Shown: in pieces, positions 6,981 through 60,705 of the stretch
Position numbering within the stretch: position 1 is the stretch's first letter
Layout: each line of letters starts with the position of its first letter
From: Squalus acanthias
Taxonomy: Eukaryota
Direction of reading: 5' to 3'
Assembly (NCBI GenBank): GCA_030390025.1
Contig: JASTWF010000033.1
Coordinates: 3,040,001-3,104,000, forward strand
DNA: 64,000 bases
Made by a program: the position numbers and the translations under genes
Notes under the pieces: model-generated
The model's database searches: none
What the model was told of the DNA's origin: nothing
Seen by the model: the letters and a program-made list of their open reading frames with translations, nothing else

Positions 6981-7327
6981 CTTTTTACGGCTCCTTTTCT
7001 TATTTCCAATCCCTCTCAGAAATCCCGATCATAGAGAAGCAGCTACAAAGGCAATTGACACAATTACCTGGGAGGCACCATTATGCCCCTGTCCCTTACC
7101 TCCCTCCCATCTCAATGTCTGTGCAAGTTCTGGGCACATAGGCTCCATTCCACTTCCCCAGGGGAAGCCTTGCGAATACCTAATGTGGAGGGACAGCATC
7201 ACGAGCTTACCACCCCTTTTTACCTGCCTTTGCCCAGCGGAAATAAGCATTCCCCAGACCAAAGAAGAGGATAATTGGGCTCTGACTCATGTCCACCGAT
7301 TCCTCCTCCTGTCCATATGTGATGTTC

Positions 7328-7610
7328 ACGCTGCCAACTCCAGCCCGCGGTGACTACAACTGACGAGTTCTAACCAGGGGCTAAAGCTTGACTCCAGATG
7401 GCATGACAAAGGAGCCAGGAGCCAATCACACAGCAGCCAGGGCAGGCCACGTCCACTGGCGCAGTGACAGGGTGACATGGTCAGGCTCTGCTCCTGGTGT
7501 AGTCTCACTGGACTGGAGCACAGTTTGCAGGATCTGCCCATTTGTGTTATGGCCCAGTCTCCGAACCCCGCTCCCGCCTAACGACGCCTCCAGCAGAGAG
7601 CACAGCCCCC
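7328..7610. repeat. About 290-bp direct repeat, copy 2
   Basis: Aligns by eye with 5517-5807. Confidence 0.85.
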
Positions 7611-8146
7611 AATATTTGATTTTAGGACTCTTGCATTCCAACCTCCTAAATTGAGGTCCGAGTATTCAATGTCCTTAACGACCCAATATCCCTAAAATGT
7701 TTTCATCTCCTTTGAAACTGGGAACTAAGCATTCCACAGACCCATAGAAGAGGAATATACAGACTTGTGTTACATCCAAACATTCCTCTTGCTGTCAAAG
7801 TATGATGTAAATCGGCAACTTTACTCCATTTACCCGCCTTGATTCTATAACCCTTGATACACTTGCCTAACAAAAATCTATCAATCAAAGTTTCGTAATG
7901 TTCAATAAAGTATCCTCAACAGCATTTTGGGGGAGCACAGCCTCTAATATTAGGTTTTATGACGCTGGTATCGCAACCTCCAAATGTGAGATCCCACTAT
8001 TCAATGTTCCCCACATCCCAATGTCTCCACATATTTTAACTCTCCTTTGCAACTGGGAACTAAGCATTCCACACTCACATGGAAGAGGAATATAGGGACT
8101 AGTTTCACATCCAAAGATTCCTCCTACTGTCATTAGGAGATGTAAA
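7597..8146. repeat. About 215-bp local duplication (7597-7811 and 7933-8146) separated by a minus-strand CR1 3' fragment
   Basis: GAGCACAGCC...TCTCCTTTG(A/C)AACTGGGAACTAAGCATTCCACA...GAAGAGGAATATA...ACATCCAAA present twice. Confidence 0.8.
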
Positions 8147-8443
8147 GCTGGGCATTGTCCGTGCTCCCCTCGTTGTAAATGCGATAGTTGTGAATTTGCC
8201 GCGTTATCCTTTACTATACATTAAGCATTATTTCTGTGTGATTTCTCAGGACATTATATAATACTTGAAATAAACCAAACATCAATACGAATAAAAACTG
8301 AGCGCAACGCTGAAAGTTTCACAGGAAATAATCAAAAGGAAGAGGGGTGAATTAAAGAAAGAATAAACTAAATTAAATTTGGAAAATTCTGGAAAGACTG
8401 AGCAGGTCCTGCAGCAACTGTGGAGAAGGGAAGCTCGGGTTAA

Positions 8444-11400
8444 TGGTACAAACGGGACGGTCTGCACCTGGGCAGGGCAGGGACCGATGTCCTAGGGGGA
8501 GTATTTGCTAGTGCTGTTGGGGAGGGTTTAAACTAAAGTGGCAGGGGGTTCGGAACCTGAGCAGGGAGACAGAGGAAAGGGAACAAAGGATAAAAGCTAA
8601 AGACAGGAAGGAGAAAAACAAAAGTAGAAGGCAAAGAACTCAACGGTTTAAATCAAACATGGTCACAGTAAATAATAATTCATATAGGTCTACGAGCGTT
8701 AAAAAACAAGCCTGAAGGCTTTGTGTCTTAATGCAAGGAGCATTCGGAACAAGGTGGATGAATTATCTGCGCAAATAGAGGTCAATGAATACGATTTGAT
8801 TGGGATTACAGAAACATGGCTCCAGGGTGGCCAAGGCTGGGAACTCAACATCCCGGGTTATTCAATATTTAGGAACGATAGGCAAAAAAGAAAGGGAGGT
8901 GGGGTAGCATCGCTGGTTAAAGAGGGGATTAACACAATTGAAAGGATGGATATTAGCTGTGATGATGCGGAATCTGTATGGGCAGAACAGAGAAATAACA
9001 AGGGGCAGAAAACGTTAGTGGGAGTGGTATATAGACCTCCAAACAGTAATTCTGAGGTTGGGGACGGCATTAAAAGGGAAATTAGAGAAGCATGCAGTAA
9101 GGGCACAGCAGTCATCATGGGTGACTTTCATTTACATATAGATTGGGCTAACCAAATTAGTAAAAATACTGTGGAGGAGGAATTCCTAGAATGTTTACGA
9201 GATGGTTTTCTGGAACAATATGTCGAAGAACCAACGAGAGATCAGGCCATCTTAGACTGGGTATTATGTAACGAGAAAGGATTAATTAGCAATCTTGTTG
9301 TATGAGGCCCCTTGGGTCAGAGTGATCATAACATGATAGAATTCTTCATTAGGATGGAGAGTGAAGTAGTTGAATCAGAGACTAGGGTGCTGAATTTAAA
9401 TAAAGGAAACTACGATGGTATGAGGTGCGAATTGGGTAGGGTTGATTGGGGAATGACACTTAAGGGGTTGACGGTGGATAGGCAATGGCAAACATTCAAA
9501 GACTGCATGGATGAACTACAGAATTTGTTCATCCCAGTGTCGCATAAGAATAAAACAAAAAGGGTGACTCAACCGTGTCTAACAAGGGAAATTAGGGATA
9601 GAATAAGATCCAAGGAGAGGGCAGATAAATTGGCCAGAAAAAGCGGTAGCCCTGAGGATTGGGTGCAGTTTAGGATTCAACAAAGGAAGACAAAGGGATT
9701 AATTAAGAAGGGGAAAATAGAATATGAAAGTAAGCTTGCTGGGAACATATAAACTGACTGTAAGAGCTTTTATAGATATGTGAAGAGAAAAAGATTAATG
9801 AAATCATGTGTAGGTCCCTTGCAGTCAGAAACGGGGAAGTTATAATGGGGAACAAAGAAATGGCAGGCCAATTAAATGCATATTTTGGTTCTGTCTTCAC
9901 AAAGGAGGACACAAATAACCTCCCAGAGATGTTGGGGAACATACGGTCTGATGAAAGGGAGGAACTGAAAGAAATCAGTAATTGCAGTGAAATGGTGTTA
10001 GGGAAATTGACGGGATTGAAGGCCGATAAATCCCCAGGACCTGATAATCTACATCCTAGGGTACTTAAGGAAGTGGCCCTAGAAATAGTAGATGCATTGC
10101 TGATCATCTTCCAACATTCGATGGAATCTGGAACTGTACCCATGGATTGGAGGGTAGCTAATGTTACCCCACTATTCAAAAAGGGTGGTAGAGCGAAAGC
10201 GGGGAATTACAGACCGGTAAGCATGACAACGGTATTGGGGAAAATGCTAGAGTCCATTTTAAAGGATGTAATAGCTGAGCACTTGAAAAACAGTGACAGG
10301 ATCGGACAAAGTCAACATGGATTTACAAAAGTTAAATCGTGCTTGACTAATCTACTGGAATTTTTTGAGGATGTAACTGGGAAAATAGATAAACGAAAAC
10401 CAGTAGATGTGGTGTATTTGGACTTTCAAAAGGCTTTCGATAAGGTCCCGCATAAGAAATTAGCATGTAAAGTTAAGTCACATGGGATTGGGGGCAAGGT
10501 ATTGACTTGGATAGAGAACTGGTTGGCGGACAGAAAGCAGAGAGTAGGAAATAATGGGTCTTTTTCCGAGTGGCAAGCAGGGACTAGTGGGGTACCGCAG
10601 GGATCGGTCCTTGGACCCCAGCTATTCACAATATACATTAATGATCTAGATAAGGGAACTAAATGTAATATCTCCAAGTTTGCAGATGACACAAAGCTGG
10701 GTGGGATTGTGTGCTGCGAGGAGGATACCGAGAAACTCCAGGATGATTTGGACAGGTTGGGTGAGTGGGCAGAAGCGTGGCAGATGCAATATAACGTGGA
10801 TAAATGCGAGGTAATCCACTTTGGTGTCAAAAACAGAAAGGCAGACTATTATCTGAATGGCAATAGATTGGGAGAAGGGGAAGTGCAACGAGACCTTGGT
10901 TTCCTTGCGCACCAGTCGCTGAAAGTAAGCATGCAGGTGCAGCAGGCGGTGAAGAAGGCAAATGGTATGTTGGCCTTCATAGTGAAAGGGTTTGAATATA
11001 GAATCTAGGAGCAGGAGTAGGCCATTCGAGCCTGCTCCACCATTCAATACGATCATGGCTGATCATTCAAATCCAGTACCCTGTCCCTGCTTTAATCCCC
11101 ACAGTACACATATCCCACCCTACCCCCGTAACCCCACGTATTTAATTCCCCCTTACATATTCCATCCTATCCCCATAACCCCACATATTTAATCCCCCCC
11201 TAACACTAAGGGTCAGTTTATCATAGCCAAATCAACCTAACCCGCACATTTTTGGACTGTGGGAGGAAACCGGAGCACACCCACGCAGACACGGGGAGAA
11301 TGTGCAAACTCCACACAGACAGTCACCCGAGGTCAGATTCGAACCCGGGTTCCTGGCGCTGTGAGGCACCAGTGCTAACCACTATGCCACCGGGTTGGAA

Positions 11401-12013
11401 TAAAGGAACAGGGATGTCCTGCTGCAGTTGTACAGGGCCTTGGTGAGACCACACCTTGAGTACTGTTTGCAGTTTTGTTCGCCTTATCTGAGGAAGGATG
11501 TTCTTGCCATGGAAGGAGTTCAGCGAAGATTCACAAGGCTGATACCTGGGATGGCAGGAATGACATATGAGGAGAGATTGGGTCGATTGGGCTTATACTC
11601 GCTGGAGTATAGAAGAATGAGCGGGGATATCATCGAAACATATAACTTTCTGACAGGTCTGGACAAACTAGATGCGGGAAGAATGTTCCCGATGGTCGGA
11701 GAGTTCAGAACCAGGGGTCATAATCTAAGGATAGCGGATAAGCCATTTAGGACAGAAATGAGGAGTAATTCTTTCACCCAGAGAGTGGTGAACCTGTGGA
11801 ATTCTCTACAACAGAGTGTAGTTGAGGCCAAGTCATTAAATATATTCAAGAACGAGTTAGATATATTTCTTAAAGCTAAAGGTATCAAGGGATATGGGGA
11901 GAAGGCAGGCACAGGGTATTAAGTTTGGATGATCAGCCATGATCTCATCGAATGGCGGAGCAGGCTCGAGGGGCCGAATGGCCTACTCCTGCTCCTATCT
12001 TCTATGTTTCTAT
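8444..12013 (+). mobile_element. Near-complete CR1 LINE (end of ORF1, ORF2 APE+RT, 3' tail), disabled and interrupted by an antisense SINE
   Basis: APE motifs CLNARSIRNK, GITETWL, YRPP, GDF, SDHN; RT motifs DFQKAFDKVPH, GVPQGSVLGP, FADD; tail GGGCCGAATGGCCTACTCCTGCTCC...TTCTAT; stops and frameshifts at about 9305, 9752 and 11008. Confidence 0.95.
11003..11391 (-). mobile_element. HE1-type V-SINE head fused to a CR1 3' tail, inserted antisense into a CR1
   Basis: Minus strand GGTGGCATAGTGGTTAGCACTGGTGCCTCACAGCGCCAGG, V-domain TGTGTGGAGTTTGCACATTCTCCCCGTG, then CR1 tail GATCAGCCATGATCGTATTGAATGG...GGCCTACTCCTGCTCC; degenerate TSD GGGTT(T/G)GAATA at 10988 and 11392. Confidence 0.85.
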
Positions 12014-25605: not shown

Positions 25606-26961
25606 TGAAGGAATAATTACAAGTCCTAGCCCTTATCGGGCTACCCCAGATCAGGTGTATTCCCCAGATGTTCACCTTCAACTAAAGTTAGAGATAGCCG
25701 AATTCTATAAGACGCTTAATTGATTGGTCTAAAGGTCAGACTACCTATCTCTAAAGGAAAGGAACGACGTGAAGATGTTACCGTCTTCCGGATAGCACTT
25801 TTAATAAGTTTACCTAGACTGTAACCTTCCGGATACTACGAGTGTCTGGAACACCCCCCAGAATTCTGCTACTCCTTTGAGAATACAGAAATTGAGTTCG
25901 CGAGTTTATACAGAAATACTCTGTGAGAGAATTCTAAAAATATTTAGATTTATTGAAGAACCGACATTTAGTTAACACCTGTTATGGCAATCGCAACTTT
26001 ATCCGTTCAAAATACAAATAGCTTACATTTCTTATGAGAGATCCTTTATCTCAAATCTTAACTTCGTAACATTTCCACACTTCTACTTATTTCTTAATCC
26101 AGAATATCCACCAAAATCAAATATATTGATCACCCGAGACTCAGAGTTGTAAACTTACAGAGTGTGCCTGTGAAGTTGAGAAACGCTTGCCCTTCCAGCG
26201 ACTTCTGACTTTTCAGCTGAAAAGCTCTTATTTTTATGCTATTTTTTAGTGGTATTTTATTTGAAGTATTCTGCTGATGTAAGCTAATTGTCTCTAGTGA
26301 TACTCTATTGAATTCTTTTCTATTCTTACTTTCGTTTCAACTGTTGCAACCAGACTTGTGTCTCTAACTTTAGGTGTTTCAAAAACTTATCATTTTTATG
26401 GTTATTATCGATTTATCTATTTGTTGCCATTCTTAGGAAGCATTTCGATTGAATTTCTAAATCACCTCTGCTGTTTGTAACACAGACTCCTGTCTCTTTT
26501 GCATTTCTTATTTACTTCAATTGGTTATATTGAGAACCATGTCTCCTTGTTCTAAGTTTAACATAAAACTATTTTACGGCAGGTATTTCTTTTACTTGAT
26601 GTGATTTTTTCAAAGGCACTTGTTTTTTTTAATGTTCTGTGCACCTGTTCGACGTGTTAGATTGTGACACTTTACTTGGGTCATTCCATTGTGTTGGTTC
26701 CAATGTCCAGACATAGAGGAACCTCCAGCCTGCTGTTTCAATAGGGCCATGTCTTTGTATTTACAAACATTTCCCATTTCAAAGGTTTTGATTTTTACAA
26801 CGTTGTTAACAACTGATCTTTATCTCAGAAGCCTGTTTTTCTGTTTTATGGCTTGTGTCGTTGAGGCTTTTAGATTTTTAACCCCAGTTTGTCATGTTTT
26901 AATATTATCAAATCTGGTTATAGGATGATGTATTTCGTGGAATATGGCTATTTCCTTCACA
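25606..26961 (-). repeat. 3' LTR of the foamy-like provirus (1356 bp)
   Basis: Minus strand starts TGTGAAGGAAATAG and ends TTATTCCTTCA; AATAAA at 25954-25949; aligns to 33041-34815. Confidence 0.95.
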
Positions 26962-26972
26962 CCGCCACCTTG
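26962..26972 (-). other. Degenerate polypurine tract
   Basis: Minus strand AAGGTGGCGG directly abuts the 3' LTR TG. Confidence 0.5.
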
Positions 26973-27579
26973 ACCAAAAGATGAGCTTAAAACTTCAGGG
27001 CAGACTTTGGTCAATGATACTCATAAGGTTACAATAGCATATTAAGTTCACGAGATGCACAATCATGTGCTGCATGAAAATTCTTTTAAAATCATCCTAG
27101 GACTATGTTTTGCCTTATTTTAAATTGAACACAATTTAAAAGGTAGATAGTACATAGTCATGTAATGAGCGAAACTACATGTCCTAAGAATGTTCAATCG
27201 GCAGATGTAAGTTCACTGTAGGTGAGTTATTCATACGAGTCAAGGAGACGTCATTGGAAACTAGTTGAAGCTTGACACGCTGATCCTTCGATCCGACGTG
27301 TGTACAGATGATTGTATTCGTAAAGGCCTTGCCGGGCACTCAGTTGATTCCTTCTTTATCCGCGATGTCTTCCTCCTTCATTAAAGTAACTCATTGATCT
27401 TTCCTTGTGTCAGTTGTTGCTTTTCGCAAATCCAAATCCTGATGCGTTGCCAAGTAACGTGTAGAAGAGCTGACGACACCTTCTGACTTCCCATCGTCAG
27501 TAATTCGATCGCATCCATTTCCTGTGTCGTGTTGCAAACTGGGTCTTAAAAGACAGTATACAACTGCACCTTGTATTGT

Positions 27580-30500
27580 TCATCCTTTTCGATAGCCTGC
27601 AGGACATCTTTTGATATTGTATCCGGAGACAGTTTTAAAAATATGCTTGCCATTCGGCTGGTTAACATTTATTTGAACTGATCTTTCGTTAATAACAGAA
27701 TGTATTTGAACAGGTTTTTTCCACTTCGGTCTTAAACCAGGTTTCTGCTCGAACTTCTTTTCCTGTACCCATTCTCCTACTATGGGTTGCCAAGCTTCAT
27801 TTGTCAATGTTTTCTGCCTACTCGCCTCCCTTATCCTCTGATCAATTCGATGAATCTCCTCTGTTACTTCTTTTTTTAAATCTAACTGCCGCTGCCGGGT
27901 CAAGGACTCAGAGTGAGTAGAGGTAATAAAAGAACTATGGGTAAGCGGTGTATGCATCTCAACCCCATACATTAGATAATATGGAGGTTTAGGGGCACTA
28001 TCCCTGATGCAGATGTTATTGCATTATTGAGTGATAGCTGCACCTCCGCAATGATGGTGGTCAACTTATTCCCCCTGATTCTCAACAGTTTGACCAATAG
28101 CTTTTTTACTTCCTGGTTTTTACGTTCAACCAGCCCCGCTGATTGCGGGTGACGTGCGTGCTGTGATGTAACCCAATCCCCCTTTGTTCGCAGTACTCTT
28201 TCAAGACCTTGGATAAAAATGTTCCGCCTTGATCGGAGTGTAAGATTGTGGGTGCGCCAGCTACAGTAATTATATCAGAAATAGCCCTGGCAAGTGCGGT
28301 TGCCAAAACAGTTTTTGTGGGGACCAACCAGCAAAAGGAAGTGCATCCATCCACACAAACGAGAACATGTCTATATCCCAAAGATGGTGGGAAGTGGTCC
28401 AATAAAGTCAATGAAGAATTTTCCCATTGGCTCTTCAGCTTTCACAGGAGCCAATGGTGGTGGCTTAATTAGTGATGACTTATTGGTCAAATAGCATGGC
28501 TCACAATTTACCACGTATGTTTTACAGGCTTTAAGCATGCTTGGCCACCAATATAAGGGGGTCAATTTAAAGAATGTTGTTCTGGCACCACAGTGTGCTT
28601 GACTTATACCCTCGTGAGCTTCTTTTACAAGCTGTTCTCGTTTGTGGCTCGGGGGTACTTCTCGGTTTCCATTGGGCAACTTAACTAGTACAATACCGGT
28701 AGGGGTTTCCGAGTAAGAGTACTTTGGTGGATATCCTGGTGGACTCTCTTGTGTTGGGTCTAATAGCTGAATCAGTTAGTCATCCTGATTAGCTGCCTGT
28801 TCTGCACTAGTGATTACACTAACATCGGCAGGCCCCTCTCGAGGGGGTGTCATGCAGACCGAACGTTTCGCTTGTTCGTCTGCAAGACTGATTCCTTTTG
28901 AGTGTACTGTCTCAGTGGTATGCCCGTTTAAATGAATCACCTGACAATGATTTTTCTCCATTCTCGAACGGAGAATGTCTTCCCACAATGTCTTATGTTT
29001 TATGGGTTTGCCCTTATGATTGGTAAAATTTGTTTGTTCCCAGAAAACTAGATCTTTGTTATATCCTCTTTTACAGGAGTCACTATCCGTGCAGATTAGT
29101 GTGCGTTTAATAGAATCTGCTTTCTCTAAAGCATATCGTAATGCTGCGGCTTCAGCATATTGCGCTGTCTTATTGCCAAGGGGCATAGACAGTAATTCTT
29201 CTGGATAAAAAGAATAGGAATCTCGAAAAGTCTCTACTACTATCCCCATCCCAGCTGAAGATTGTTGGGATGTCCCTTTTTTAATCGTCATTGGCGATCC
29301 ATCACAGTAAATAACTTGATGTTATTCTGTAAGCGGTCTCATAGGTCTTTGTCTGATTCCCTCCTGTGTAACAGCATTCTCCATGATGGGGAGATGCTCT
29401 AAGTCAATTTCCGGGGAGAGGAAGTTAAAAATGAGTGTAGGATCTTTCAAGAATGATGCCCATTTATCATATCGGATCTGGGTGGCTCTTTTTTCATCAG
29501 AAGCCATCCTCAATACTGATCTTAAATCGGGAATCTCAATATAAATGGTGAAAGGGCCCTTCCATTGAACGGTTCGTGCCTTGATGAGGCATTGGACTAC
29601 CATAGTCATGACCCTTTCTTTTTTACTGTCCCTCCTTTCGACATTGGAACAGTTATACGAATGGAACTGAATGGGCACTCTGCTCTTTTCATTATAAAAA
29701 CTGCAACATGTACTTTAGGTAATGACCTGAGATGAATATTGAGGGGAACTTGTAGGTCCCGCTGTTCCAGGTCTATGGCTTTTTGTACCTCTCGGCATAA
29801 TTGTTGCAATATTGAGATATCGTCTGGTGAAAATATGAATGTTCCTTTCGCTGCTTCGCCCACTCCAGCATACAAGGGTGCTGAGAGCTCTGCAAAGGTT
29901 GGTGTAAAGGATCGAGCAAAATTCAGAAGTCCTAAACTGGCTTGCAGGTGTTTCAGAGTTTTAGGATATTGAATGGTGGCTAATTTTTAATTTATAGGTT
30001 TGAGTTAATCCTTACCGTTTCCAGTTATTCTCAGGCCCAGAAAATCTACCTCTTCCCGAACTAGTTGACTCCTTTTTATGTTGATTAAATACCCAGCAGT
30101 TGTAAGTCTGGAGAAAACACTATCAATGGCTTTCAAGTGTTCTTGGAGATTGTCATGTGACAAATATATATCGTCCACATAAGAATTGACGTTAGGTAGG
30201 TATTTTAAAAGGTCAATGATATGGGCTGAAAAGAGAACGGGACTGTTTTGAAATCCCTGGGGCAATCTGGTCCAGCAATACTGATGGCCATCGGGTCCAG
30301 TCATTGCAGTTTTTGGCCAATCAGATTGTTCGATTGGATGTGACCAGAAGCCGTTTGCTAGATCAATATAAGATTTATATTTTTCCCTCGTGATTCCAGA
30401 GAGAAGGGCTGTGGAATTTTCCTGTTGTAAAGTATGTGGGGCCGTTACCTTATTTAAGTCTGTATAATCGACCACTAATCTCCACCTCCCATCTGGTTCA

Positions 30501-31170
30501 GCAAAACCAAACAATGGTGAATTAGTTCTTGATGCCATTTTCGTTAAGACACCTTGTTCTGTTAGTTCGTTGAGCGTTGTTAGGAGATCTATTTTTCTTT
30601 TATGGTCTCGAATAGGCCTCTGTTTCTTAGGCTTGTACCAGCCAGCATCAAGTGGGTGGGGGTTGATGTTTATCTTTCCACATTGATTTGGATGGCGTTG
30701 TAGATACGGGGAGTATTTATTTATTAGTTTCTCGAGGAGGTCTTTGCCTCCCCCCTCTAGGCAATTTCGATCAAGCTGTGTCCGAACATGTTTTTCCCTG
30801 TCATCCTGGTTTGTGGATGCTTCTACAGGTTTGGTTGAAATATTAAGGTAATGTTGCATGTCTGGTTGTCTTATAATGCGGGAACTGGCCAATTGTGGGA
30901 CCAGTCCTACATCTAGGGTTACCGTTATTCCATATTTAGTAATATATACTTTGTAAAAATTAATTATTTTGTTTCTGTTTTGTGTCAATCCCCCAAATGA
31001 TTTTTGTTACAAATTGGACTTCCCAAACCTGTCCAGTTAGTTATTATAATTGCATGATCTATTACAGTGTAATCAGCCTCCGTATCAAACAGGGACTTCA
31101 CTTGTGTGTTTTTGGGCAAGGTTGCCAAGGCTTAGGGGAATTCAAGAGGACCTGGCTTGGTGCCAGGCAT
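27580..31170 (-). pseudogene. pol: Foamy-type pol (protease-RT-connection-RNase H-integrase) with stops and frameshifts
   Basis: PR LFDTEADYTVI (DTG mutated, 31086-31078); RT KYKSYIDLANGFWSHPI, QYCWTRLPQGFQNSP, YVDDIYLSHD; RH YCDGS..AGMGIV, PLGNKTAQYAE, CTDS, NHKGKPIKH; IN GYPPKY, AH..AHCG..LYWWPSM..CEPC, FFIDFIGPLP, LHSDQG, VERKN, WQPIVGEWVQE..LRPKW. Confidence 0.95.
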
Positions 31171-32744
31171 TCAATCCTGGGATTGCTCATCCTCAGGATC
31201 CTGAGCTTAATTTGCTGCTTTGTCTTTAATTATTTTAACTGATTTTTGTCCTCCACTTGGGAGTATCATATTTTCCAGATCCCTGAGGGGGTTTGTTGGA
31301 CCGTTTATTATCTTGACGACCCTCCTGTTGAGGTGGACGTTGGTTCTGCCGGGAGTCTTTTTGATCCGCATCAGTTTTCCCGATATCGTCCCATGGCTCT
31401 CTGATAACTTTGTCCAGTGTAAAAGCTGTCCCCATAGGGAGTCCACTGTCTTTGGCTTTCGTTTCCAGGTCTAGCCCCTCGTCTATCCTATCTTTCCGAG
31501 GAGAAATCTTTCTCGTATTGTGGGCGAGTTGGTGATGCAAACATTCTGGAATACACTCTTGGGGGTCCCGAGCCACGAGCTTGTGACTGGGCGGGGTGGA
31601 CTTGAGACTTGTGTCTATACCGTCCTTGGTTCTGAATACCAAAGGTACCTTCTCCGGTTATTATATCCCTAGTTTCTGATCTCATTATAGGTTTAGTTTG
31701 GGGTAGAACTAAGAGGTCATGATTTAATTGGATAATACGTTTGACATTATCCCATTTTTGTTGGTTATCGCGATAATCGTTAAGAGCACCCTCACAAGCA
31801 AGTTTGAGGGCTGTATTTTGGTATTGATTGGCCAGGCAACCGTGGACAATATCCCAGTTATCCTCTGTAAGTACTTTGCCTATTCTGTAGGCAGCTACCA
31901 GTCCTTTAGTTGTGGCTGTATTAGTGAGTATTTCCTTGATGGAACCCATTACGTGTCCTCCCTGAGTTACCGTGAGAACATAAGTGTATATTTGAACCCA
32001 GTTGTTACACTAATTTAACGGGGGTATTAAGACTGAACTTAGTATCATTTGCAGTAGTTGCCTCAGGTTTTGAGCATTCCAATCTTAGCAACAGGTTTCC
32101 AATTTATCAAGGTTATTTAGAATCCAGCAAGTTTTTTCCTGGCTTGTGTTTCCTGGTTTACCACACATCGTGTAGATAGAACTGAGGTTTACTTGACCTT
32201 GGGGCGCAATTTGTGGTTGCTGGGGTTGGTTTACTGGACCATTAATCATTGCACGTCAATCATGTAGATAACAGTGAGCCAGTGCCTGTCGGCATTGATT
32301 ATAATGAATTCTAAGCTCTCTATAGTTTTCTCGAAGATTGTGGTCATTTATTTCTTCATGAGTTTGCCACTTTAACCGTAATCCATGGCCCCCAGGAGGA
32401 TAGGCTGCTCCGGGTCCTGCTATTCGGTCATGGTTGCCACCACCTTGTTGGGCACCGTTCAATAGGCCTCCCAATTAAGCAGGTGTGCACCTTATCATTA
32501 AGGAATTTATTGGATCTGGTGTATTTGTTTGATTATCCCACAGGATATTCTGTATCCCCAGGTTCTGGGGATCAACATTAATCGTACCATGAGTTCTAAC
32601 GGCTCCTAAGGCATCAAAGCCTTCTATTTCAAAAATTATCACTTGGTCTTGTGGGGCTTCAGGGATAGGATTATTTCCCCTAATAAAGCAGTCGTTTAAA
32701 TTTTCTAACAAAAAGACTTGGCCAATTCCGACAGGGTTTGCCAT
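31171..32744 (-). pseudogene. gag: Foamy-type gag (about 520 codons, interrupted by stops)
   Basis: Single frame from ATG 32744 through in-frame stops to 31488: N-terminal LENLNDCFIRGNNPIPEAPQDQVIIFEIEG; capsid-like GLVAAYRIGKVLTEDNWDIVHGCL (cf. foamy GVATAYTLGMMLSGQNYQLVSGII); G/R/Q-rich C-terminus; no Cys-His knuckle. Confidence 0.8.
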
Positions 32745-33020
32745 TTTTTCAGGACCTAACCTCGGTTAGGATTTAATTGCATCAGGACCTAACCTCGGTT
32801 AGGGTTTAATATGAACTTTATAAGAAGCTTCTAGACCTCAATGGTATATTGAGGGAATTCTGATTTAACTTCTACAAGGCCTGATCAAGGACTTGTTGTC
32901 TCTAGAAACATAAATCTGGGTCTTAGTACCACCGTCAGTAAAACACTCCTTCTATACTTAACAATCTACAGGATATATATAGATATAAATATAAGTATAG
33001 GTTCTGTATCAACTCGTTAA

Positions 33021-33038
33021 CACACACGTTCGGGGCCA
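33021..33038 (-). other. Primer-binding site, tRNA-Lys1,2-like (degenerate)
   Basis: TGGCCCCGAACGTGTGTG two bases after the LTR ...CA; 13/18 match to TGGCGCCCAACGTGGGGC. Confidence 0.7.
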
Positions 33039-33040
33039 AC

Positions 33041-34815
33041 TGAAGGGATAATTACAAGTTCTAGCCCTTTTCGGGCTACCCCAGATCAGGCGTATTCCCC
33101 AGACGTTCACTTTCAATTAAAGTTAAAGATAGACGAATTCTATAAGTCACTTAATTGGGTCTAAAGGTCAGACTACTTATCCCTAAAGGAAACGAATAAG
33201 GTGAAAGTGTTACCATCTTCCGGATAACACTTTTAATACGTTTAACTAGAATGTAACCTTCCGGAAATTATAAGGGTCCGGAATACCCCCCAGAATTCTG
33301 CAACTCCTTTGAGTATACAGAAATTGAGTTTGCGTGTTTATACAGAAATACTCTGCGAGACAATTCTAAAAATATATAGATTTATTAAAGAACCGACATT
33401 TAGTTAAGACCTGTTATGGCAATTGCATCTTTAACCGTTCAACATACAAATAGCTTACATTTCTTATCAGCGATGCTTATTCTCAAATCTTAACTTCGCT
33501 AAATTTCCACACTTCTACTTATTTCTTAATCAAGAATATCCACCAAAATCAAATACCTTGATTAACCGAGACTTAGAGTTGTAAACTTACAGAGCGTGCC
33601 TGTGAAGTTGAGAAACACGGTGACATAGTGGTTAGCACTATTGCCTCACAGCGCCAGAGACTTGGGTTCAGGATCCGGCCCCGGGTGACTGTCTGTGTGG
33701 AGTTTGCACATTCTCCCCGTCTCTGCGTGGGTTTCCTCCGGGTGCTCCGGTTTCCTCCCACAGTCCAAAGATGTGCGGGTTAGGTTGATTTGGCAATGAT
33801 AAATTGACCCTTAGTGTTAGGGGGATTAAATACGTGGGGTTACGGGGATAGGGTGGGATATGTGTCGGTGCAGTCTCGATGGGCCGAAATGGCCTCTATG
33901 TGCACTGTGGGATTCTGCGAACATTCTGTAAACGCTTGCCCTTCCAGCCACTTCTGACTTTTCATCTGAAAAGCTCTTATTTTTATACTCTTTTTTAGTG
34001 TTATTTTCTTTGAAGTATTCTCTTAATGTAAGCTAATTGTCTCTTGTGATACTCTATTGAATTGTTTTCTATTCTTACTGTAGTTTCAACTGTTGCAAAT
34101 AGATTGTGTCTCTACCTTTAGGTGTTTCAAAGACTTATCATTTTTATGTTTATTATCGATTTATCTATTTGATGCCATTCTTAGGAAGTCTTTCTATTGA
34201 ATTTCTATATCACCTCTGCTGTTTGTAACACAGACTCCTGTCTCTTTGCGTTCCAAGTTTAACACATAAACAATGTAATTGCTTGGGGTCGTCTACTGAT
34301 GTAATAGTTACAAAGTCTCTCTGTAGTTACTTTTTACAATTTGTAATTCAAAAACACTTCATCTAGGGTGTTCTTTACATTTCTTAGTTACTTCAATTGG
34401 TTATATTAAGAATCATGTCTCCTTGTTTTAATTTTAACATAAAACTATTTAACGGCAGGTATTTATTTTACTTGGTCATTTTTTCAAAGGCACTTGATTT
34501 TTTAATGTTCTGTGCACCTGTTCGACGTGTTAGATTTTGTCGCTTTACTCCGTCATTCCATTGTGTTGGTTCCAATGTTCAGACATAGAGGAACCTCGAG
34601 CATGCTGTTTCAATAGGGCCATGTCTTTGTATTTATAAACATTTCCCATTTCAACTTTGTTAACAACTGATCTTTATCTCAGAAGCCTGTCTTTCTGTTT
34701 TATGGCTTGTGTCGTTGAGGCTTTTAGATTTTTAACCCCAGTTTGTCATGTTTTAATATTATCAAATTTGTTTATAGGATCATGTATTTCTTGGAATATG
34801 GCTATTTCCTTCACA
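33041..34815 (-). repeat. 5' LTR of the foamy-like provirus (1775 bp including a 313-bp SINE)
   Basis: Same termini as the 3' LTR; TATAAAAA at about 33987-33980; AATAAA at 33386-33381; extra about 130-bp U3 segment (about 34250-34378). Confidence 0.95.
33617..33929 (+). mobile_element. HE1-type V-SINE inserted into the 5' LTR
   Basis: tRNA head ACGGTGACATAGTGGTTAGCAC, V-domain, tail GATGGGCCGAAATGGCCTC; absent from the 3' LTR; AAAC on both sides. Confidence 0.9.
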
Positions 34816-34968
34816 GCACAACCGAGGAGCAGATAGAGAGACCACTCGTTCTGCCTCCCCTCAGATAGCCCTGGCCTGTCAGTCAAACCCAATTTTCACA
34901 GTTCACAGCACCTCATCAAACAGTGAGCTGCTTCCCCCACCTTGATCCAGAACCCAAAGTGAGTCTGT
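34816..34968 (-). pseudogene. 5' part of a putative dynein-like pseudo-exon split by the provirus (3' part at 25601-25586)
   Basis: Acceptor TCCTCCTCTCCGTTCACAG| at 34969; after removing the provirus the exon ends ...CATGTAG|GTACGT at 25585; DSLWVLDQGGGSSSLFDEVL resembles dynein ED.N.LL..GE...LF..DEL. Confidence 0.35.
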
Positions 34969-35819: not shown

Positions 35820-36380
35820 CGCACCTTCCACATTATACCACCAGGGACGCACACTCGCGCTTACTCACACTACAGACCTGGTAAGATGCATTGTTTACAT
35901 TAAGCTCAGGAGCGCACAGACAGCCCTTCTCTCACTACAGACCTGGTAAAATGCATTGTGTACATTAAGCCAGCAGGGTGCGCACACGCAGCCTTACGCT
36001 CACTACAGACCTGGTAAGGTGCATTGTGTACATTAAACCACCAGGGGGCGCACACTCGCCCTTAATCAAACTACAGACCTGGTAATATGCACTTTCTACA
36101 TAAAACAACCAGGGGGCGCACACTCGCCCTTATGCACACTACAGACCTGTTAAGATGCCCCATGTAGCTTAAACCAGCAGGGGGCGAACGCTCGCCCTTA
36201 CGTGTCCAACAGGCCTATAAACATGCACCATGTACGTTAAAAAAAACAGAACACGTTCAGTCGCCCTTACTAATCTTACAGACCTGTAAACATGTACCTT
36301 GTAGCTTAAAGTACCAGGGAACACATAATCGCCCTTAATTCGAGGACATACATGTTAACATGCACCGTGTACAATAAAGG
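35820..36380 (+). repeat. 68-bp tandem repeat (about 8 units) with CTCF-like cores
   Basis: Cores CCAGCAGGGTGCGC (35970), CCACCAGGGGGCGC (36038), CAACCAGGGGGCGC (36106), CCAGCAGGGGGCGA (36174) at exact 68-bp spacing. Confidence 0.85.
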
Positions 36381-36384
36381 GTGT

Positions 36385-36665
36385 AGATCAGCTGAAGATA
36401 ATTGGTGGGGTGGGGAGGACCGATAGTATATTAGGTGGGGTGGGGCGGGGCTGAGTATATTAGGTGGCCTGGGGAGAAGGTGCAGATATTAGGTGGGGTG
36501 GGGTGAAGATGAAGTAATTCGGCGGGGTGGGGAGGAGGTGAAGCTAGTAGGTGGGTGGAGAGGAGCTGAAGACATTAGGTGGGGTGAGGATGAGCTGTGG
36601 ATATTAGGTGGGGTTTGGATGACCTCAGGATATCAGGTGGGGTGGGGAGGAGCTCCAGACATCTT
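36385..36665 (+). repeat. About 30-bp G-rich tandem repeat
   Basis: GATATTAGGTGGGGTGGGG-like units repeated about 9 times. Confidence 0.8.
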
Positions 36666-41042: not shown

Positions 41043-44000
41043 AGAAACATAGAAACATAGAACATCGGTGCAGGAGTAGACCATTCGGTCCTTCGAGCCT
41101 GCACCGCCATTCAATGCGTTCATGGCTGAACATGCTACCTCAGTACCCCATTCCTGCTTTCTCGCCATGCCCCTTGATCCCCCTAGTTGTGAGTATTATA
41201 CCTAACTCCCTTTTGATTATATTTAGCGAACTGGCCTCAACAACCTTCTGTGTTAGATAATTCCACAGATTCACCACTCTCTGGGTGAAGAAGTTCCTCT
41301 CATCTCAGTCTTAAATGGCTTCCCCTTTATCATTAGACTGTGACCACTGCTTTTAGTTTTCCCTAACATTGGAAACATTCTGCCCGCATCTAATTTGTCT
41401 AAACCAGTCAGGATTTTAAACGTCTCTATAAGATCCCCCCTCATTCTTCTGAACTCCATAGGATACAAGTTCAGTTGATCCAGTCTTTCTTGATATGTCA
41501 GTCTGGCCATCCCAGGAATCAATCTAGTGAACCTTCGTTGCACTCCCTCAATAGCAAGAATGTCCTTCCTCAAGTTAGGAGACCAAAACTGCACACAATA
41601 CTCCAGGTGCGGCCTCACCAAGGCCCTGTACAACTGTAGCATCACCTCCCTACTCCTGTAGTCAAATCCCCTTGCTATGAAGGCCATCATGCCATTTGGT
41701 TTCTTGACTGCCTGCTGCACTTGCCTTCCCACCTTCAGTGACTGATGTACCATGACGCCCAGGTCTCGTTGCACCTCCCCTTTCCCTAATCTGCCAACAT
41801 TCAGGTAATAGTCAGCCTCCCTATTTTTATCACCAAAGTGGATAACCTCACATTTATCCACATTGTACTTCATCTGCCATACATTTGCCCATTCACCCAA
41901 CCTGTCCAAGTCACTCAGTAGCCTCCTAGCATCCTCCTCATTGTTCACACTGCCTCCCAATTTAGTGTCATCTGCAAATTTGGAGATATTACAATTAATC
42001 CCTTCGTCCAAATCATTAATATATAATGTAAACAGCTGGGGCCCCAGCACCGAACCCTGCGGTACCCCGCTGGTCAATGCCTGCCATTCTGAAAAGTACC
42101 CATTTATCCTACTCTTTGTTTCCTGTGTGCCAACCAGTTCTCAATCCACGTCAACACATTACCCCAAATCCCATGTGCTTTAACTTTGCACACCAATCTC
42201 TTGTGTGGGACCTTGTCGAAGGCCTTCTGAAAGTCCAAATACACCAGATATACTGGTTCCCCCCCGTCCACCCTATTGAAACATCCTCAAAAAATTCCAG
42301 AATATTTGTCAAGCATGATTTCCCTTTCACAAATCCATGCTGACTTGGACCTATCATGAAGCCACTTTCCAAATGGTCTGTTATGACATCTTTAATAATT
42401 GATTCCATCATTTTACCCACCACCGATGTCAGGCTGACCGGTCTATAATTCCCTGCTTTCTCCCTCCCTCCTTTTTTAAAAAGAGGGGTTACATTAGCCA
42501 CCCTCCACTCCTTCGGAACTGATCCAGAGTCTAAGGAATGTTGGAAAATGATCGTCAATGCATCCACTATTTCCAAGGTCACCTCCTTAAGTACTCTGGG
42601 ATGCAGACCATCAGGCCCTGGGGATTTATCAGCCTTCAGTCCCATCAATTTCCCCAACACCTTTTCCCGACTGATAAGGATTTCCCTCAGCTCCTCCCTC
42701 TTACCAGATCCTTTGATCTCTTTTATTTCCGGAAGGTTGTTTGTGTCCTCCACAGTAAACACCGAACCAAAGTACTTGTTCAATTGATCTGCCATTTCAT
42801 TGTTCCCCGTTATGACTTCCCCTGTTTCTGACTGCAGGGGACCTACGTTTGTTTTTACTAACCTCTTTCTTTTTACATATTTATAGAAGATTTTGCAGTC
42901 TGTTTTAATGTTCTCCGCAAGCTTCCTTTCATATTTTATTTTCCCTGCCCTAATCAAACCCTTCGTCCTCCTCTGCTGAGTTTTAAAGTTCTCCCAGTCC
43001 CCGGGTTTGCTGCTACTTCTGGCCAATTTGTATGTCACTTCCTTGCTTTTAATACTATCCCTGATTTCCCTTGTTAGCCATGGTTGAGCCACCTTCCCTT
43101 TTTTATTTATACGCCAGACAGGGATGTACAATTGCTGTAGTTCATCCATGCGATCTCTAAATGTCTGCCATTGCACTTCCTCAGATAACCCCTTAAATAT
43201 CGCTTGCCAATCTAACCTCGCCAATTCACGCCTCATACCCTCAAAGTTCCCCTTATTTAAGTTCTGGACCATGGTCTCTGAATTAACTGTTTCTTTCTCC
43301 ATCCTAATGTAGAACTCCACCATACTATGATCACTCTTCCACAAGGGGCCTCGTACCACAAGATTGCTGATTAGTCCTTCCTCATTACACAACACCCAGT
43401 CCAGGAGGCCTCCCCTCTAGTTGGTTCCTCAACATATTGGTTTAGGAAACCATCCCTTAAACACTCCAGGAAATCCTCCTCCACCGTATTGCTTCCAGTT
43501 TGAGTAGCCCAATCTATATGCATATTAAAGTCATTCATGATAACTGCTGCGCCTTTTTTGCATGCACCTGTGATTTCCTGTTTCATACCCTCCCCCACCT
43601 CACTACTACTGTTTGGAGGTCTGTACACAACCCACACTAACGTTTTCTGCCCTTTGGTGTTCCGCAGCTCAACCCATATTGATTCCACATCCTCCAAGCT
43701 AATGTCCTTACTAGCTATTGCATTAATCTCATTTTTAATTAGCAATGCCAGCCCACCCCTTTTTCCTTTTATTCTATCCTTCCTGAATGTTGAATACCCC
43801 TGGATATTCAGTTCCCAGCCTTGATTGTTCTGGAGCCACGTCTCTGTAATCCCAATCACATCATATCTGTTAACATCAATTTGCACAGTCAATTCATCCA
43901 CCTTATTACGGATACTCCTTGCATTAAGACACAGAGCCTTTAGGCTTGTTTTATTAACACCCTTTGTCCTTTAAGACTTATGATTTAGTATGGCCCTTTG

Positions 44001-54090: not shown

Positions 54091-54574
54091 CATAACACTA
54101 CTTTTTTATTTGAAAAAACAACGTGTTTTTTTAAATTTAACTCTCCCTGTAATTTGTTCAATGTTTTTTTTTATTGAAATGCAAGAATAACTATTTAAAA
54201 TCCGCTGTTCTCTTGTTCTGATTGTTGTACTTTCCCTTCCAGTCTTTCCATTTTTAAGATTAGAAAAAAATAAGAATTTTCCCGCTCCCCCAAAAAAATT
54301 CTGTGCTCCGTCCGGTGTTTGAGCCCCCGACCTTGGACTTGTATCAAACTAGGTTGAGAACCCATTGACGTTTCGTTTCTTCCGCCTGATTGAATTACGT
54401 TTTCCATTATATTACATTTCGTTTTCCGACATTACAACAATGGCTACATTTCAAAAGCACTTAATTGGCAGCAGGGCGCTTTGGGACGTCCTGAGGTGGT
54501 GAAAGGCGCATAAACAAAATGTAAGACAATCTTTTTTCGTTTCCGTCCTTGTATTTTACTTTGTACACGTTATC

Positions 54575-57148
54575 TGAAGCTGCCAATCACCCCTCTCCTT
54601 CCGGCAACCTTCAGAGAAATTCCTGCACTTCCCTCTCTGTATACAGTCTGCAGCTGCCAATCATCCACTCTCCTCCAGTGAACTGGCAGAAAAACACCTG
54701 AACTTCCCTCTCTGTATACAGTCTGCAGCTGTCAATCACCCACTCTCCTCCAGTGAACTGGCAGAAAAATTCCTGCACTTCCCTCTCTGTATACAGTCTG
54801 CAGCTGTCAATCACCCACTCTCCTCCAGTGAACTGGCAGAAAAATTCCTGCACTTCCCTCTCTGTATACAGTCTGCAGCTGTCAATCACCCACTCTCCTC
54901 CAGTGAACTGGCAGAAAAATACCTGAACTTCCCTCTCTGTATACAGTCTGCAGCTGCCGATCCCAAACTCTCCTCCCGGGAATTTCAGCATGTATCTCTC
55001 TACAGAAAGTCTGCAGCCATCAATTACCCACTGCCTTCACGGGAAGTGTCAGAGAACTTCCTGCACTTATCTCCCTGCCTACAGTCTGCAACTTTTTATC
55101 ACCCGCTCTCCTCCAGTGAACTGGCAAAGAAATTTCTGCACATATCTCTTTGGCTAAAATAGTCATCTACCAATCAGACATACTGCTCCCGAAAACTATC
55201 AGAGAAATTAATGCAGTGATCAATCTGCCTAAAATAGGCAGCTACCAATCACACACACTGCTCCCGGGAACTATCAGAGACATTTCTACTCTGATCAATC
55301 TGCCTAAAATAGGCAGCTACCAATCAAACAAACTGCTCCCGGGAGCTAGCAGAGACATTAATACACTGATCAATCTGCCTAAAATAGGCAGCTACCAATC
55401 ACACACACTGCTCCCGGGAACTATCAGAGACATTAATACACTGATCAATCTGTCTAAAATAGGCAGCTACCAATCACACACACTGCTCCCGGGAGCTAGC
55501 AGAGACATTTCTACACTGATCACTCTGCCTAAAATAGGCAGCTACCTATCAAACAAACTGCTCCCGGGAGCTAGCAGAAACATTTCTACACTGATCAATC
55601 TGCCTAAAATAGGCAGCTACCAATCACAGACACTGCTCCCGGGTGCTAGCAGAGACATTTCTACACTGATCAATCTGCCTAAAATAGGCAGCTACCAATC
55701 ACACACACTGCTCCCGGGAACTATCAGAGACATTTCTACACTGATCAATCTGTCTAAAATAGGCAGCTACCAATCACAGACACTGCTCCCGGGAACTATC
55801 AGAGATATTTCTACACTGATCAATCTGTCTAAAATAGGCAGCTACCAATCACACACACTGCTCCCGGGAACTATCAGAGATATTTCTACACTGATTAATC
55901 TGCATGCACTCTGTAGCTGCTTATCATAAACTTTCTCCCGTTAACTTTTAGGAAACATCTTACACTTATCTCTCTGCTCACAGTCTGCAGCTGTTGGAAT
56001 GTGATCGTATTCTTATTCTGTGCTGTAATAGATAATCATCTAGAAACTGAAGTATGAGAAAGAGTAGCCAGCACGGATTACAAATGGGTGGACATGCTTG
56101 ACCAGCCTTATTGAATTATTTGAAGAAGTACCAGAAAGGCGGATCAGATTAATTCAGTGACCGTAATATTTTTGAATTTCAAAAAACCTTTGTTGATATA
56201 CCGCATAATACACTGAACGCTAAGGTCAGAACATGTGGAGTCAGGGGACAAGTAGTAGAATGGACAGCAAGCTGCAACAAAGCAACACACAGAGAATAGG
56301 GGCTAAAGGGAATTATTCAGATTGTAAAATGGTGGGATCGATGCTGGGACCACGGTTGTTCTCTATTTACATAAACGAAGTGAACTACATGGATGGTAAG
56401 TTTCTAAATGGGGTAGAGGAACATTGATATCTGATGTACAGAAATAACATCAGTAAAGATAGCGACGCAGGTAAATAGATCCTCTAAAAAAAACAAAGCA
56501 CTGGGCAACGTTTGTAGAGCGGTAAAATTGTAATGCAGAGAAGTTAATTAAATTTGAGGTGAATAGCATAGATGCATTTAAAGGGAAGCTATATATAAAC
56601 ACATGTGGGAGAAAGGAATAGAAGGATATCTGGATGTGGTTAGATGAAGATGGGTGCGAAGAAGTTATTGTGGAGCAGAAACCTGTTGGGTTGAATGGCC
56701 ACTTTCTCTGCTGAAAATACTTATGAATACTTTGAACACACTCTCCTCCCAGGAACTGTTATAGAACTTCCTGTACTGATCTCTCTACATGTAGTCTGCA
56801 GCTGTCAAACATAAACACTTTTTCTAGGGAAATGTCAGAAAACTTCCTGCATTTCTCTCTCTGCAAAAAGTCAGCAGTTGTCAAACACAGACCCACCTCC
56901 CGGGTTCTGTCAGAGAACTTCCTGCACTTATCTCCCTGCAAAGAGCCTGCATCTGTCAATCACACACTCTCCTCCCGGGTTCTGTCAGAGAACTTCCTGC
57001 ATTTCTCCCTCTGCAAAGAGCCTGCATCTGTCAATCACACACTCTCCTCCCAGATTCTGTCAGAGAACTTCCTGCACTTATCTCCCTGCAAAGAGCCTGC
57101 ATATGTCATTCACACACTTTCCTCCCGGGTTCTGTCAGAGAACTTCTT
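54575..57148. repeat. 75-bp satellite family in three subarrays (54575-55150, 55150-55905, 56735-57148), with a decayed CR1 fragment at about 56040-56720
   Basis: 75-bp period (54647/54722/54797; 55231/55306); shared core GCAGCT..CAATCAC.CAC.CT.CTCC. Confidence 0.9.
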
Positions 57149-59579: not shown

Positions 59580-60636
59580 GCTTCGGGAGAGACTGGGGAG
59601 ACAGACGGTAAGACAGAGGGCTTGGCAGACACGAGTGTGCAGTAAAACGATAGACAGACAGCGGGCAGACAGAACGTTAATCATGCAGGGAGACAGATGG
59701 TGTGAGACAGACGAGGAAGACTGGCGGGGAGGGGGGCAGATAGAAAGAAAGGGTGGGGTAATAGAGAACAAGAGACGGATGGGGTAACAGATGAGGAGAC
59801 AGCCGGCGGAGAGACAGAGGGGGAGACAGACTAGGAGACTGACGGGGCGACATTGAGGTGAGACACAGAGATAGATACGGGTGAGAGACCCACGGGGAGA
59901 GACAGGCAAGTGATTGAGAAGGTGTTGCGCAGACAGATCGTGGGAGACAGACGGAGGAGACACACGGTGGGAGAGAAACGGTGAAGACAGAGACAGAAAC
60001 AGACGGGGGAGCAGGATGGGGGAGAGAGTCTGCTGGAGACAGACGGGGGAGAACGAGGAGAGTCTCAGAGAGAGAAAGATTGGCGGGATGAATGATGGGG
60101 AGAGATAGACGGGGTAGACAGAGAAAGAGAAAGAGATAGAGAGAGAGACAGACAGACAGGGGGAGTCAGTCTGGGAGACAGACGGGATGGGGAAGACAGA
60201 GAAAGAGCGAGATAGTTGGAGGATACATCCGGTATTGCAGAGCGGTTGTCAGACAGGGGATACAGAGAGAGAGGCAGAGGGACAGACAGCGAGAAACAGA
60301 GCGTTAATCAGACGGCGAGGCCGATGGTGTGAGAGAGACAGAGAAGACAGGCGAGGGAGGTCACAGAGAGACAGGCGGTGGGGAAATCGAGAGAGAGAGG
60401 GAAAGAAAGAGAGAGAGATATGTGGGGAGAAAAACGGGAAAACAGGCAATGAGGTGGGGGACTGAGAACAATTATCATAAGGGCAGAGAGATGGCGTGAG
60501 ACAGACGAGGCAGACATGCGTGGGTGTGACAAAGAGTGAAAGACGCTAGGGGAGAAAGTGATAGAGACAGATGGGGAGACAGGCGGGGAGACTGACGGGG
60601 CAGACAGAGAAAGACCGAAAGTGGTGGGGAAAGAGA

Positions 60637-60705
<69 letters not shown>

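Follow-up and report, generated by a model that had tools for sequence, protein, structure and literature searches.

Foamy viruses reverse-transcribe their genomes late and need Env to bud. That endogenous retroviruses (ERVs) can multiply after losing env is a general phenomenon that is already known, both from the env-less ERVs said to have been described as "superspreaders" by Magiorkinis et al. in 2012 and from ERV-L. In the class II mouse elements IAP, with its deleted forms, and MusD/ETn, env loss is tied to copy excess, and derivatives are mobilized in trans. ERV-L/MuERV-L, which is related to spumaviruses, has gag and pol only and multiplied in the germ line (PMC8278194). In culture, env-deficient prototype foamy virus (PFV) reintegrates within cells, a condition that a review calls artificial (PMC3185757). 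Foamy-like pol is known from cartilaginous fishes as CmiFLERV, the Callorhinchus milii ERVs in which only pol was detected (PMC5512871), and as ERV-Spuma.0-Sca, from a study that reports no Gag or Env domains in the Spuma ERVs of sharks and jawless fishes (PMC10699275). The catshark consensus is annotated otherwise in supplement 2 of the latter study, as 9,220 nt with 866-nt long terminal repeats (LTRs) and an "env" open reading frame (ORF) at 6989-8314; it may or may not belong to the family described here. Here, we analyze a provirus on the minus strand of a 64,000-nt stretch of the Squalus acanthias genome (the window, in whose positions all coordinates are given). Sequence comparison identifies it as a member of a family of foamy-virus-like ERVs in which env appears to have been removed by one ancestral deletion that was later amplified. 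The family resembles CmiFLERV and ERV-Spuma.0-Sca in its foamy-like pol, but unlike those elements, as far as they are described, it has detectable Gag and Env homology, and its env-less state is a shared and amplified deletion. Literature searches, judged largely by title and the start of the abstract, found no published amplified env-deleted foamy-like family, and the text of PMC5210030 does not mention "retrotransposition," "env-less," or "copy number."

The foamy identity of the family was supported by several features. A 333-amino-acid piece of the window reverse transcriptase (RT) shared 44-45% identity with Pro-Pol of simian foamy virus (E values of 1e-64 to 8e-66), with the next group, gamma-type domains, at 3e-21. 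Among solved structures, the window RT matched foamy protease (PR)-RT best, at 5e-69, followed by Ty3 at 4e-23 and MLV or HIV at approximately 1e-14, while the integrase (IN) piece of a sister provirus matched PFV integrase at 2.7e-63 and Ty3 at 9e-13. By E value, foamy Pol was 40 to 50 orders of magnitude ahead of all other groups. An RT tree of 36 rows united the window with three sister copies in one clade (Shimodaira-Hasegawa approximate likelihood ratio test [SH-aLRT], 100). This clade was joined by the four named foamy viruses, by a catshark protein, and by a protein with a foamy domain (SH-aLRT, 94); the resulting grouping stood apart from 22 gamma/epsilon-like and other rows (SH-aLRT, 98). 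The order of domains was Gag-PR-RT-RNase H-IN, and Gag contained the foamy central domain (Pfam Gag_FV_central, PF20672; 1.8e-11). Motif searches for a Cys-His box and a major homology region (MHR) gave 0 matches in any frame in 5/5 gag regions searched. The element is flanked by a 4-bp target-site duplication (TSD), a feature that is not exclusive to foamy viruses. Spumavirus integration duplicates 4 bp (PMC2615609), and YVDD together with the absence of a Cys-His box and an MHR sets foamy viruses apart from ERV-L (Table 2 of PMC8278194). Pol closest to foamy Pol, a foamy-type Gag, an A9 protease with YVDD, and the 4-bp TSD were all found, as in the exogenous foamy viruses (Spumaretrovirinae; simian and prototype). 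Further likenesses to these viruses are a PFV-type IN with an SH3 domain, a pol in the +1 frame, a putatively Lys-type primer-binding site (PBS), long LTRs, and, in sister copies, a foamy-type Env that overlaps the end of pol. Unlike them, the family is endogenous and high-copy, the window retains at most approximately 90 decayed env codons and no tas/bet-sized ORF, and the PR active site reads DTGA in one sister copy.

We compared the window with env-bearing proviruses from the same genome. The alignment extends up to 27312 and starts again from approximately 27281, and the relatives carry 3.2 to 4.3 kb between these points. Window positions 27587-27312 are homologous to the start of the env ORF, which in one relative begins MEEQYKV and runs in frame into a match to the Pfam family Foamy_virus_ENV (PF03408). 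Set against the env-bearing layout, the window is without approximately 3.2 kb and retains env codons 1 to approximately 90 and approximately 310 nt of pre-LTR sequence. Foamy-type Env (PF03408) was found in sister proviruses but not in the window, where the pol-frame stop at 27582-27580 is followed by 618 nt before the 3' LTR, close to the env-free interval of about 620 bp in the original prediction; three ORF pieces in this spacer (51 to 62 amino acids) matched no Pfam family. Since a truncated env ORF is kept in the window, these observations indicate that env was deleted rather than gained. The start codon of the env remnant is intact in 5/30 env-less copies, and a stop at codon 14 is common to 21/30; on these grounds, a functional small ORF in the retained env start was rejected.

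The distribution of this junction was determined across the window's own genome (3.7 Gb). A 1,151-bp query running from the IN C terminus into the 3' LTR gave 548 first-look candidates and was full-length in 40/40 scored places, which were spread over many contigs at 88-100% identity, the window itself being the top row. A 141-bp piece spanning the junction was contiguous in 29/29 other loci and in 40/40 scored genome matches (448 first-look candidates), whereas env-bearing loci aligned only up to 27312. A 30-mer over the right breakpoint, allowing up to three mismatches, detected 28/29 env-less loci and 0/6 env-bearing loci in calibration; it occurred 201 times in the genome, compared with 0 for the reversed control. 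At least eight other places combined an RT segment with the env-less junction, spaced as in the window, indicating that the gag-pol-only form is itself multicopy. In a DNA tree of the IN region, a single branch parted 30 env-less from 6 env-bearing rows (SH-aLRT, 100), a split consistent with one deletion event, and the terminal branches of the env-less copies were long and star-like. Three of these copies (L006, L010, and L011) are near-identical, are truncated alike, and lie on one contig at 99.2 to 99.6 Mb, probably as a segmental duplication. Taken together, these data indicate that the env-less architecture arose by one ancestral deletion and was later amplified; gag-pol was kept when env was lost, and the env-less junctions number at least 201, compared with 7 env-bearing places. 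The original prediction had allowed for a private deletion in a single copy and proposed a comparison of the junction between IN and the polypurine tract; the private deletion is refuted, as the junction is common to all other copies examined, including independently inserted copies with different TSDs.

The env-bearing relatives are few. A genome search with the PF03408 profile gave 11 matches above the cutoff at 6 places (best, 3e-22), where sister proviruses show the undeleted state, and env DNA of at least 600 bp was present at only 7 places. The six env-bearing proviruses compared share 83-91% DNA identity with the window in gag-pol, and their extra stretch covers PF03408 from approximately 79 to 969. 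The LTRs changed far more than the genes between the two forms: alignment of the env-less LTR with the 1.16-kb env-bearing LTR was confined to its 3' 720 nt (approximately 69%), and the first 640 nt were unalignable save for a match of approximately 100 nt (positions 68-165, approximately 70%). Solo LTRs of the env-less type were found inside 2/6 env-bearing proviruses, indicating that env-less activity went on after those proviruses had integrated. These nested LTRs, in the C20 and C6 proviruses, had been considered as "intermediate" LTRs; this was rejected, as they are solo-LTR insertions, one of them with its own 4-bp duplication. Within the env region of C20 (L041:4300-5600, query 157-452), a piece of approximately 300 bp recurs as short matches at some 20 places dispersed through the genome and is probably an unrelated small repeat that was inserted there.

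No tas/bet-sized ORF is present in the window, where the 618-nt spacer leaves no room for one, and no conserved ORF of this size was found in the env-to-LTR stretch of the five env-bearing relatives listed, although decay could mask a short gene. The original prediction had treated independence from Tas as part of the env-less condition. This argument is inapplicable as stated, since the five env-bearing relatives listed also show no conserved ORF of that kind; Tas-independence may instead predate the loss of env, or it may not be assessable from these sequences.

Independent integrase-type insertion within the family is indicated by the duplications at the insertion sites. Four of five additional copies tested had perfect 4-bp TSDs, all different (TGTG, CAAC, GATG, and GAGG) and distinct from the GTGC of the window; in the fifth, the LTR start lay outside the piece examined. 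A deletion that removes RT (30665 to 29401) is common to 15/29 other loci, and the remaining 14 comprise 3 that share larger deletions, 3 that are contiguous like the window, and 8 that are uninformative. A 30-mer over the RT-deletion junction occurred 65 times in the genome, compared with 0 for the control. A premature IN stop is common to 14 copies, of which 10 are RT-deleted, 2 carry larger deletions, and 2 are uninformative; it was found in 0/4 RT-containing copies. Deleted forms with shared breakpoints thus carry their own TSDs, and since they are without RT and, in many of those sampled, have inherited the IN stop, they were mobilized in trans. All deletion classes retain the leader and gag start and a 1.7-kb 3' pol region. 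Foamy vectors carry the packaging signals CAS-I and CAS-II in the leader/gag start and 3' pol, and minimal vectors need the region from R to the gag start and the 3' pol region (PMC3185757). The equivalent regions survive in the naturally deleted derivatives, and we infer that they act as packaging signals there. Unlike the env-deficient laboratory constructs, this pattern is found in the germ line.

The window copy itself is complete in layout only. The LTR coordinates with TG...CA ends, the exact 4-bp GCAC duplication, and the foamy-type Gag and PR-RT-RNase H-IN of the original prediction were all recovered, but the "complete" provirus that it described is not coding-complete. Its pol is broken into eight ORF pieces by at least four frame changes and three in-frame stops, and its gag contains at least three in-frame stops. 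In a sister copy, pol overlaps gag by 350 nt, and Met codons lie upstream of the protease. The pol stop at 27580 is private to the window copy; in 27/30 env-less copies the frame continues for at least 52 codons beyond it (68 to 96 amino acids from the anchor, compared with 16 in the window). Within 27506-27582, the env-bearing pol frame ends after ...GCD, and this stop is an Arg codon in 27/30 env-less copies, where the pol frame reads 27 to 55 codons past the env-bearing stop into the former env start.

The direct repeats that make up the LTR pair are spaced 7432 to 7876 apart in the direct-repeat search of the window. The unequal lengths of the two LTRs are secondary, reflecting the gain of a SINE (short interspersed nuclear element)-like insert in the 5' LTR and the loss of 128 bp from the 3' LTR at 26498/26499. 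Neither the 3' LTR nor the LTRs of other copies contain the insert, indicating that it came after integration, and the 128 bp are present in the 5' LTR and in other copies. The canonical env-less LTR is approximately 1.48 kb (copy L002). The LTR pair differs at 107/1,330 aligned sites (8.05%), a Kimura two-parameter (K2P) distance of 0.085, which indicates that the insertion is old. With the age taken as 0.085/(2r), an assumed neutral rate r of 0.5 to 1 x 10^-9 per site per year would give approximately 40 to 85 million years.

We read the PBS sequence of 10 env-less copies and of 3 env-bearing ones. Of the 10 env-less copies other than the window, 6 have TGGCGCCCAACGTGTGTG, while one env-bearing copy has TGGCTCCCAACGTGGGGC, and both forms match what we take to be the tRNA-Lys1,2 site used by PFV. 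The primer of PFV is named as tRNA-Lys1,2 in PMC3185757. No tRNA genes were found within the 64-kb window. The coordinates of all features are collected in Table 1.

Table 1. Features of the provirus in the window, and nested solo LTRs in two env-bearing relatives
Feature	Position	Strand	Remarks
5' TSD	34816..34819	-	GTGC on element strand (GCAC on +)
5' LTR	33041..34815	-	1,775 bp; TGTG...TTCA; direct-repeat search and alignment
SINE-like insert	33617..33929		313 bp; inside 5' LTR only; resembles a tRNA-derived SINE
Candidate TATAAA	33342-33337	-	In 5' LTR; sequence match only
Candidate ATTAAA	33237-33232	-	In 5' LTR; promoter/poly(A) motifs are sequence matches only
PBS	33021..33038	-	Starts two nt past 5' LTR; two changes private to window copy
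gag, decayed	31488..32744	-	Starts MANPVG...; foamy Gag central domain; shortened by stops
pol, decayed	27580..31657	-	+1 frame; overlaps gag end
PR	30802-30617	-	Pfam Spuma_A9PTase (PF03539), 4.3e-6
RT	30496-30026	-	Pfam RVT_1, 6e-24; motif YVDD
RNase H	29315-28863	-	Pfam RNase_H
IN zinc domain	28655-28479	-	Pfam Integrase_H2C2
IN core	28378-28160	-	Pfam rve
IN SH3	27795-27658	-	Pfam SH3_11
env remnant	27312..27587	-	First ~90 codons (leader-peptide region); overlaps pol end; non-coding now
Junction segment	27282..27311	-	~30 nt; aligns to neither flank of env-bearing relatives; ~3.2-4.3 kb missing
Pre-LTR stretch	26962..27281	-	Homologous to final ~310-350 nt before 3' LTR of env-bearing relatives
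Polypurine-tract candidate	26971-26962	-	Purine-rich AAGGTGGCGG; directly before 3' LTR
3' LTR	25606..26961	-	1,356 bp; TGTG...TTCA; direct-repeat search and alignment
3' TSD	25602..25605	-	GTGC on element strand (GCAC on +); exact 4-bp pair
Solo LTR in C20 provirus (L041)	oriented 17581-18807		env-less type; own 4-bp duplication
Solo LTR in C6 provirus	oriented 9505-10945		env-less type

The provirus lies in repeat-rich DNA, as indicated by remnants of the LINE (long interspersed nuclear element) type, with AP (apurinic/apyrimidinic) endonuclease and reverse transcriptase, at 8703-11922 (+), 20793-24611 (-), and 41271-43970 (-). Just outside the 5' LTR are a 68-bp tandem array of approximately eight decaying units (35821-36379) and a 29-bp G-rich array (36390-36654), and a 69-bp array (25375-25553) lies just outside the 3' LTR. 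Farther away, 54573-57146 contains three blocks of 75-bp tandem repeats with up to 10 units and 92% matches. The stretch 60001-62800 has a strong purine skew (GC skew, 0.58; AT skew, 0.52) and includes an AG-rich 25-bp tandem array at 62380-62771.

We consider it probable that the env-deleted element spread in the germ line without Env, by reintegration within the cell, accompanied by parasitic deleted forms; such a route would build on the late reverse transcription and the Env-dependent budding of foamy viruses. An env-bearing foamy-like virus (gag, pol, and foamy-type env; approximately 12 to 13 kb; 1.16-kb LTRs) would have entered the germ line. One descendant would then have suffered a single deletion of approximately 3.2 kb, from about env codon 90 to some hundreds of nucleotides beyond the env stop, and the resulting gag-pol-only element, with a much-altered LTR, would have multiplied to at least 200 insertions. 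In each cycle, the LTR would drive genomic RNA, Gag would be made from the full-length RNA and Pol from its own +1 frame, and a Lys-type tRNA would prime reverse transcription. Env-less capsids, trapped in the germ-line cell that made them, would return DNA to its nucleus, where the foamy-type integrase would insert it with a 4-bp duplication; RT-less derivatives would be copied by proteins supplied in trans. The copy excess, the solo LTRs in env-bearing proviruses, the shared decay of the env remnant, and the remodeled LTR all point to Env-independent spread, and spread inside germ-line cells seems the likeliest route. The original prediction of an env-less spumavirus lineage living as a retrotransposon holds in that the family is foamy-type, is env-less, and far outnumbers its env-bearing kin; it needs amendment in that the window copy is not coding-complete and the state arose by a single ancestral deletion. 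On balance, we are slightly inclined toward a broader view, that a foamy-type lineage switched naturally from infection to Env-independent germ-line retrotransposition, with progenitor-type, autonomous env-less, and RT-less parasitic forms co-resident, the deleted forms marking the minimal cis regions and the changed U3 (unique 3' region) marking a change of promoter.

An alternative route, which we regard as rather unlikely, is that the env-deleted genomes were defective passengers, enveloped by the Env of env-bearing relatives and re-infecting germ cells. Such relatives do reside in the same genome with closely similar gag-pol, the similar branch lengths and LTR divergences of the two classes make joint activity possible, and the RT-deleted derivatives indicate that the family tolerates trans-complementation. 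However, some 7 env-bearing places would have had to serve at least 201 env-less junctions, env-less-type solo LTRs interrupt two of the six env-bearing proviruses, the decay of the env start is shared among copies, and env-deficient foamy virus is able to reintegrate intracellularly (PMC3185757); none of these points is decisive. The other explanations concern what the copies are rather than how they moved. A deletion private to a single provirus would agree with the finding that the env-less state came from a deletion relative to env-bearing relatives, but it is refuted by the presence of the junction in all 29 other loci, in all 40 scored matches, and in 201 pattern matches. It is highly improbable that segmental duplication of a few insertions produced the copies: this may hold for the three near-identical, alike-truncated copies on one contig, but the 40 scored matches are scattered over many contigs, four of five tested copies are bounded by a 4-bp TSD of their own and differ in their flanks, and the terminal branches are long and star-like. 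It can hardly be maintained that the element is not foamy-like and belongs instead with the class III elements of the ERV-L type or with LTR retrotransposons of the Gypsy type, env never having been present. ERV-L is indeed env-less and related to spumaviruses (PMC8278194), but it has YIDD, an MHR, and a dUTPase domain after IN, none of which is found in the shark family, and we rejected an ERV-L or Gypsy identity on the foamy Gag central domain, the A9 protease, YVDD, the truncated foamy env start, and PF03408 Env in sisters.

Several observations weigh against spread without Env or against parts of the history proposed for it. Terminal branches of the env-bearing copies (0.027 to 0.09) are similar to those of the env-less copies, and env-bearing LTR divergence (approximately 4 to 11%, from self-matching pairs) is comparable between the classes, so that a helper Env could have been present concurrently. 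The mode of spread is inferred from sequence comparison and from foamy virus biology. The IN-region tree is unrooted, and the direction of the deletion relies on the truncated env ORF. The grouping of the window with named foamy viruses, a check that the original prediction had called for, was obtained in an RT tree without ERV-L, fish foamy-like ERVs, or lokiretroviruses. TSDs come from the window and RT-deleted copies only, all four additional copies with TSDs being RT-deleted, and copy numbers are given as minimum values or as unverified candidates. Finally, L018, although RT-deleted, is placed apart from the main clade of RT-deleted copies in the IN-region tree, so that recombination or tree error must be invoked.

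The family has parallels among elements that gave up env in other hosts. It is like IAP and MusD/ETn in combining env loss with copy excess and trans-mobilized deleted forms, and unlike them in that they are class II mouse elements. It also resembles ERV-L in its kinship to spumaviruses, in having kept gag and pol only, and in its germ-line multiplication; it differs from ERV-L in that its env-bearing progenitor type still resides in the genome alongside it. The loss of env followed by a copy excess of approximately 30-fold or more would be natural evidence for an intracellular route driving genome invasion. An env-less family of this kind would explain shark surveys that recovered pol but no env (PMC5512871 and PMC10699275), and it would be overlooked by surveys that demanded a downstream env (PMC4422223). 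With all three forms in one genome, the family would provide a comparative system for the changes in Gag, Pol, and the LTR at the switch, for packaging signals, and for host silencing.

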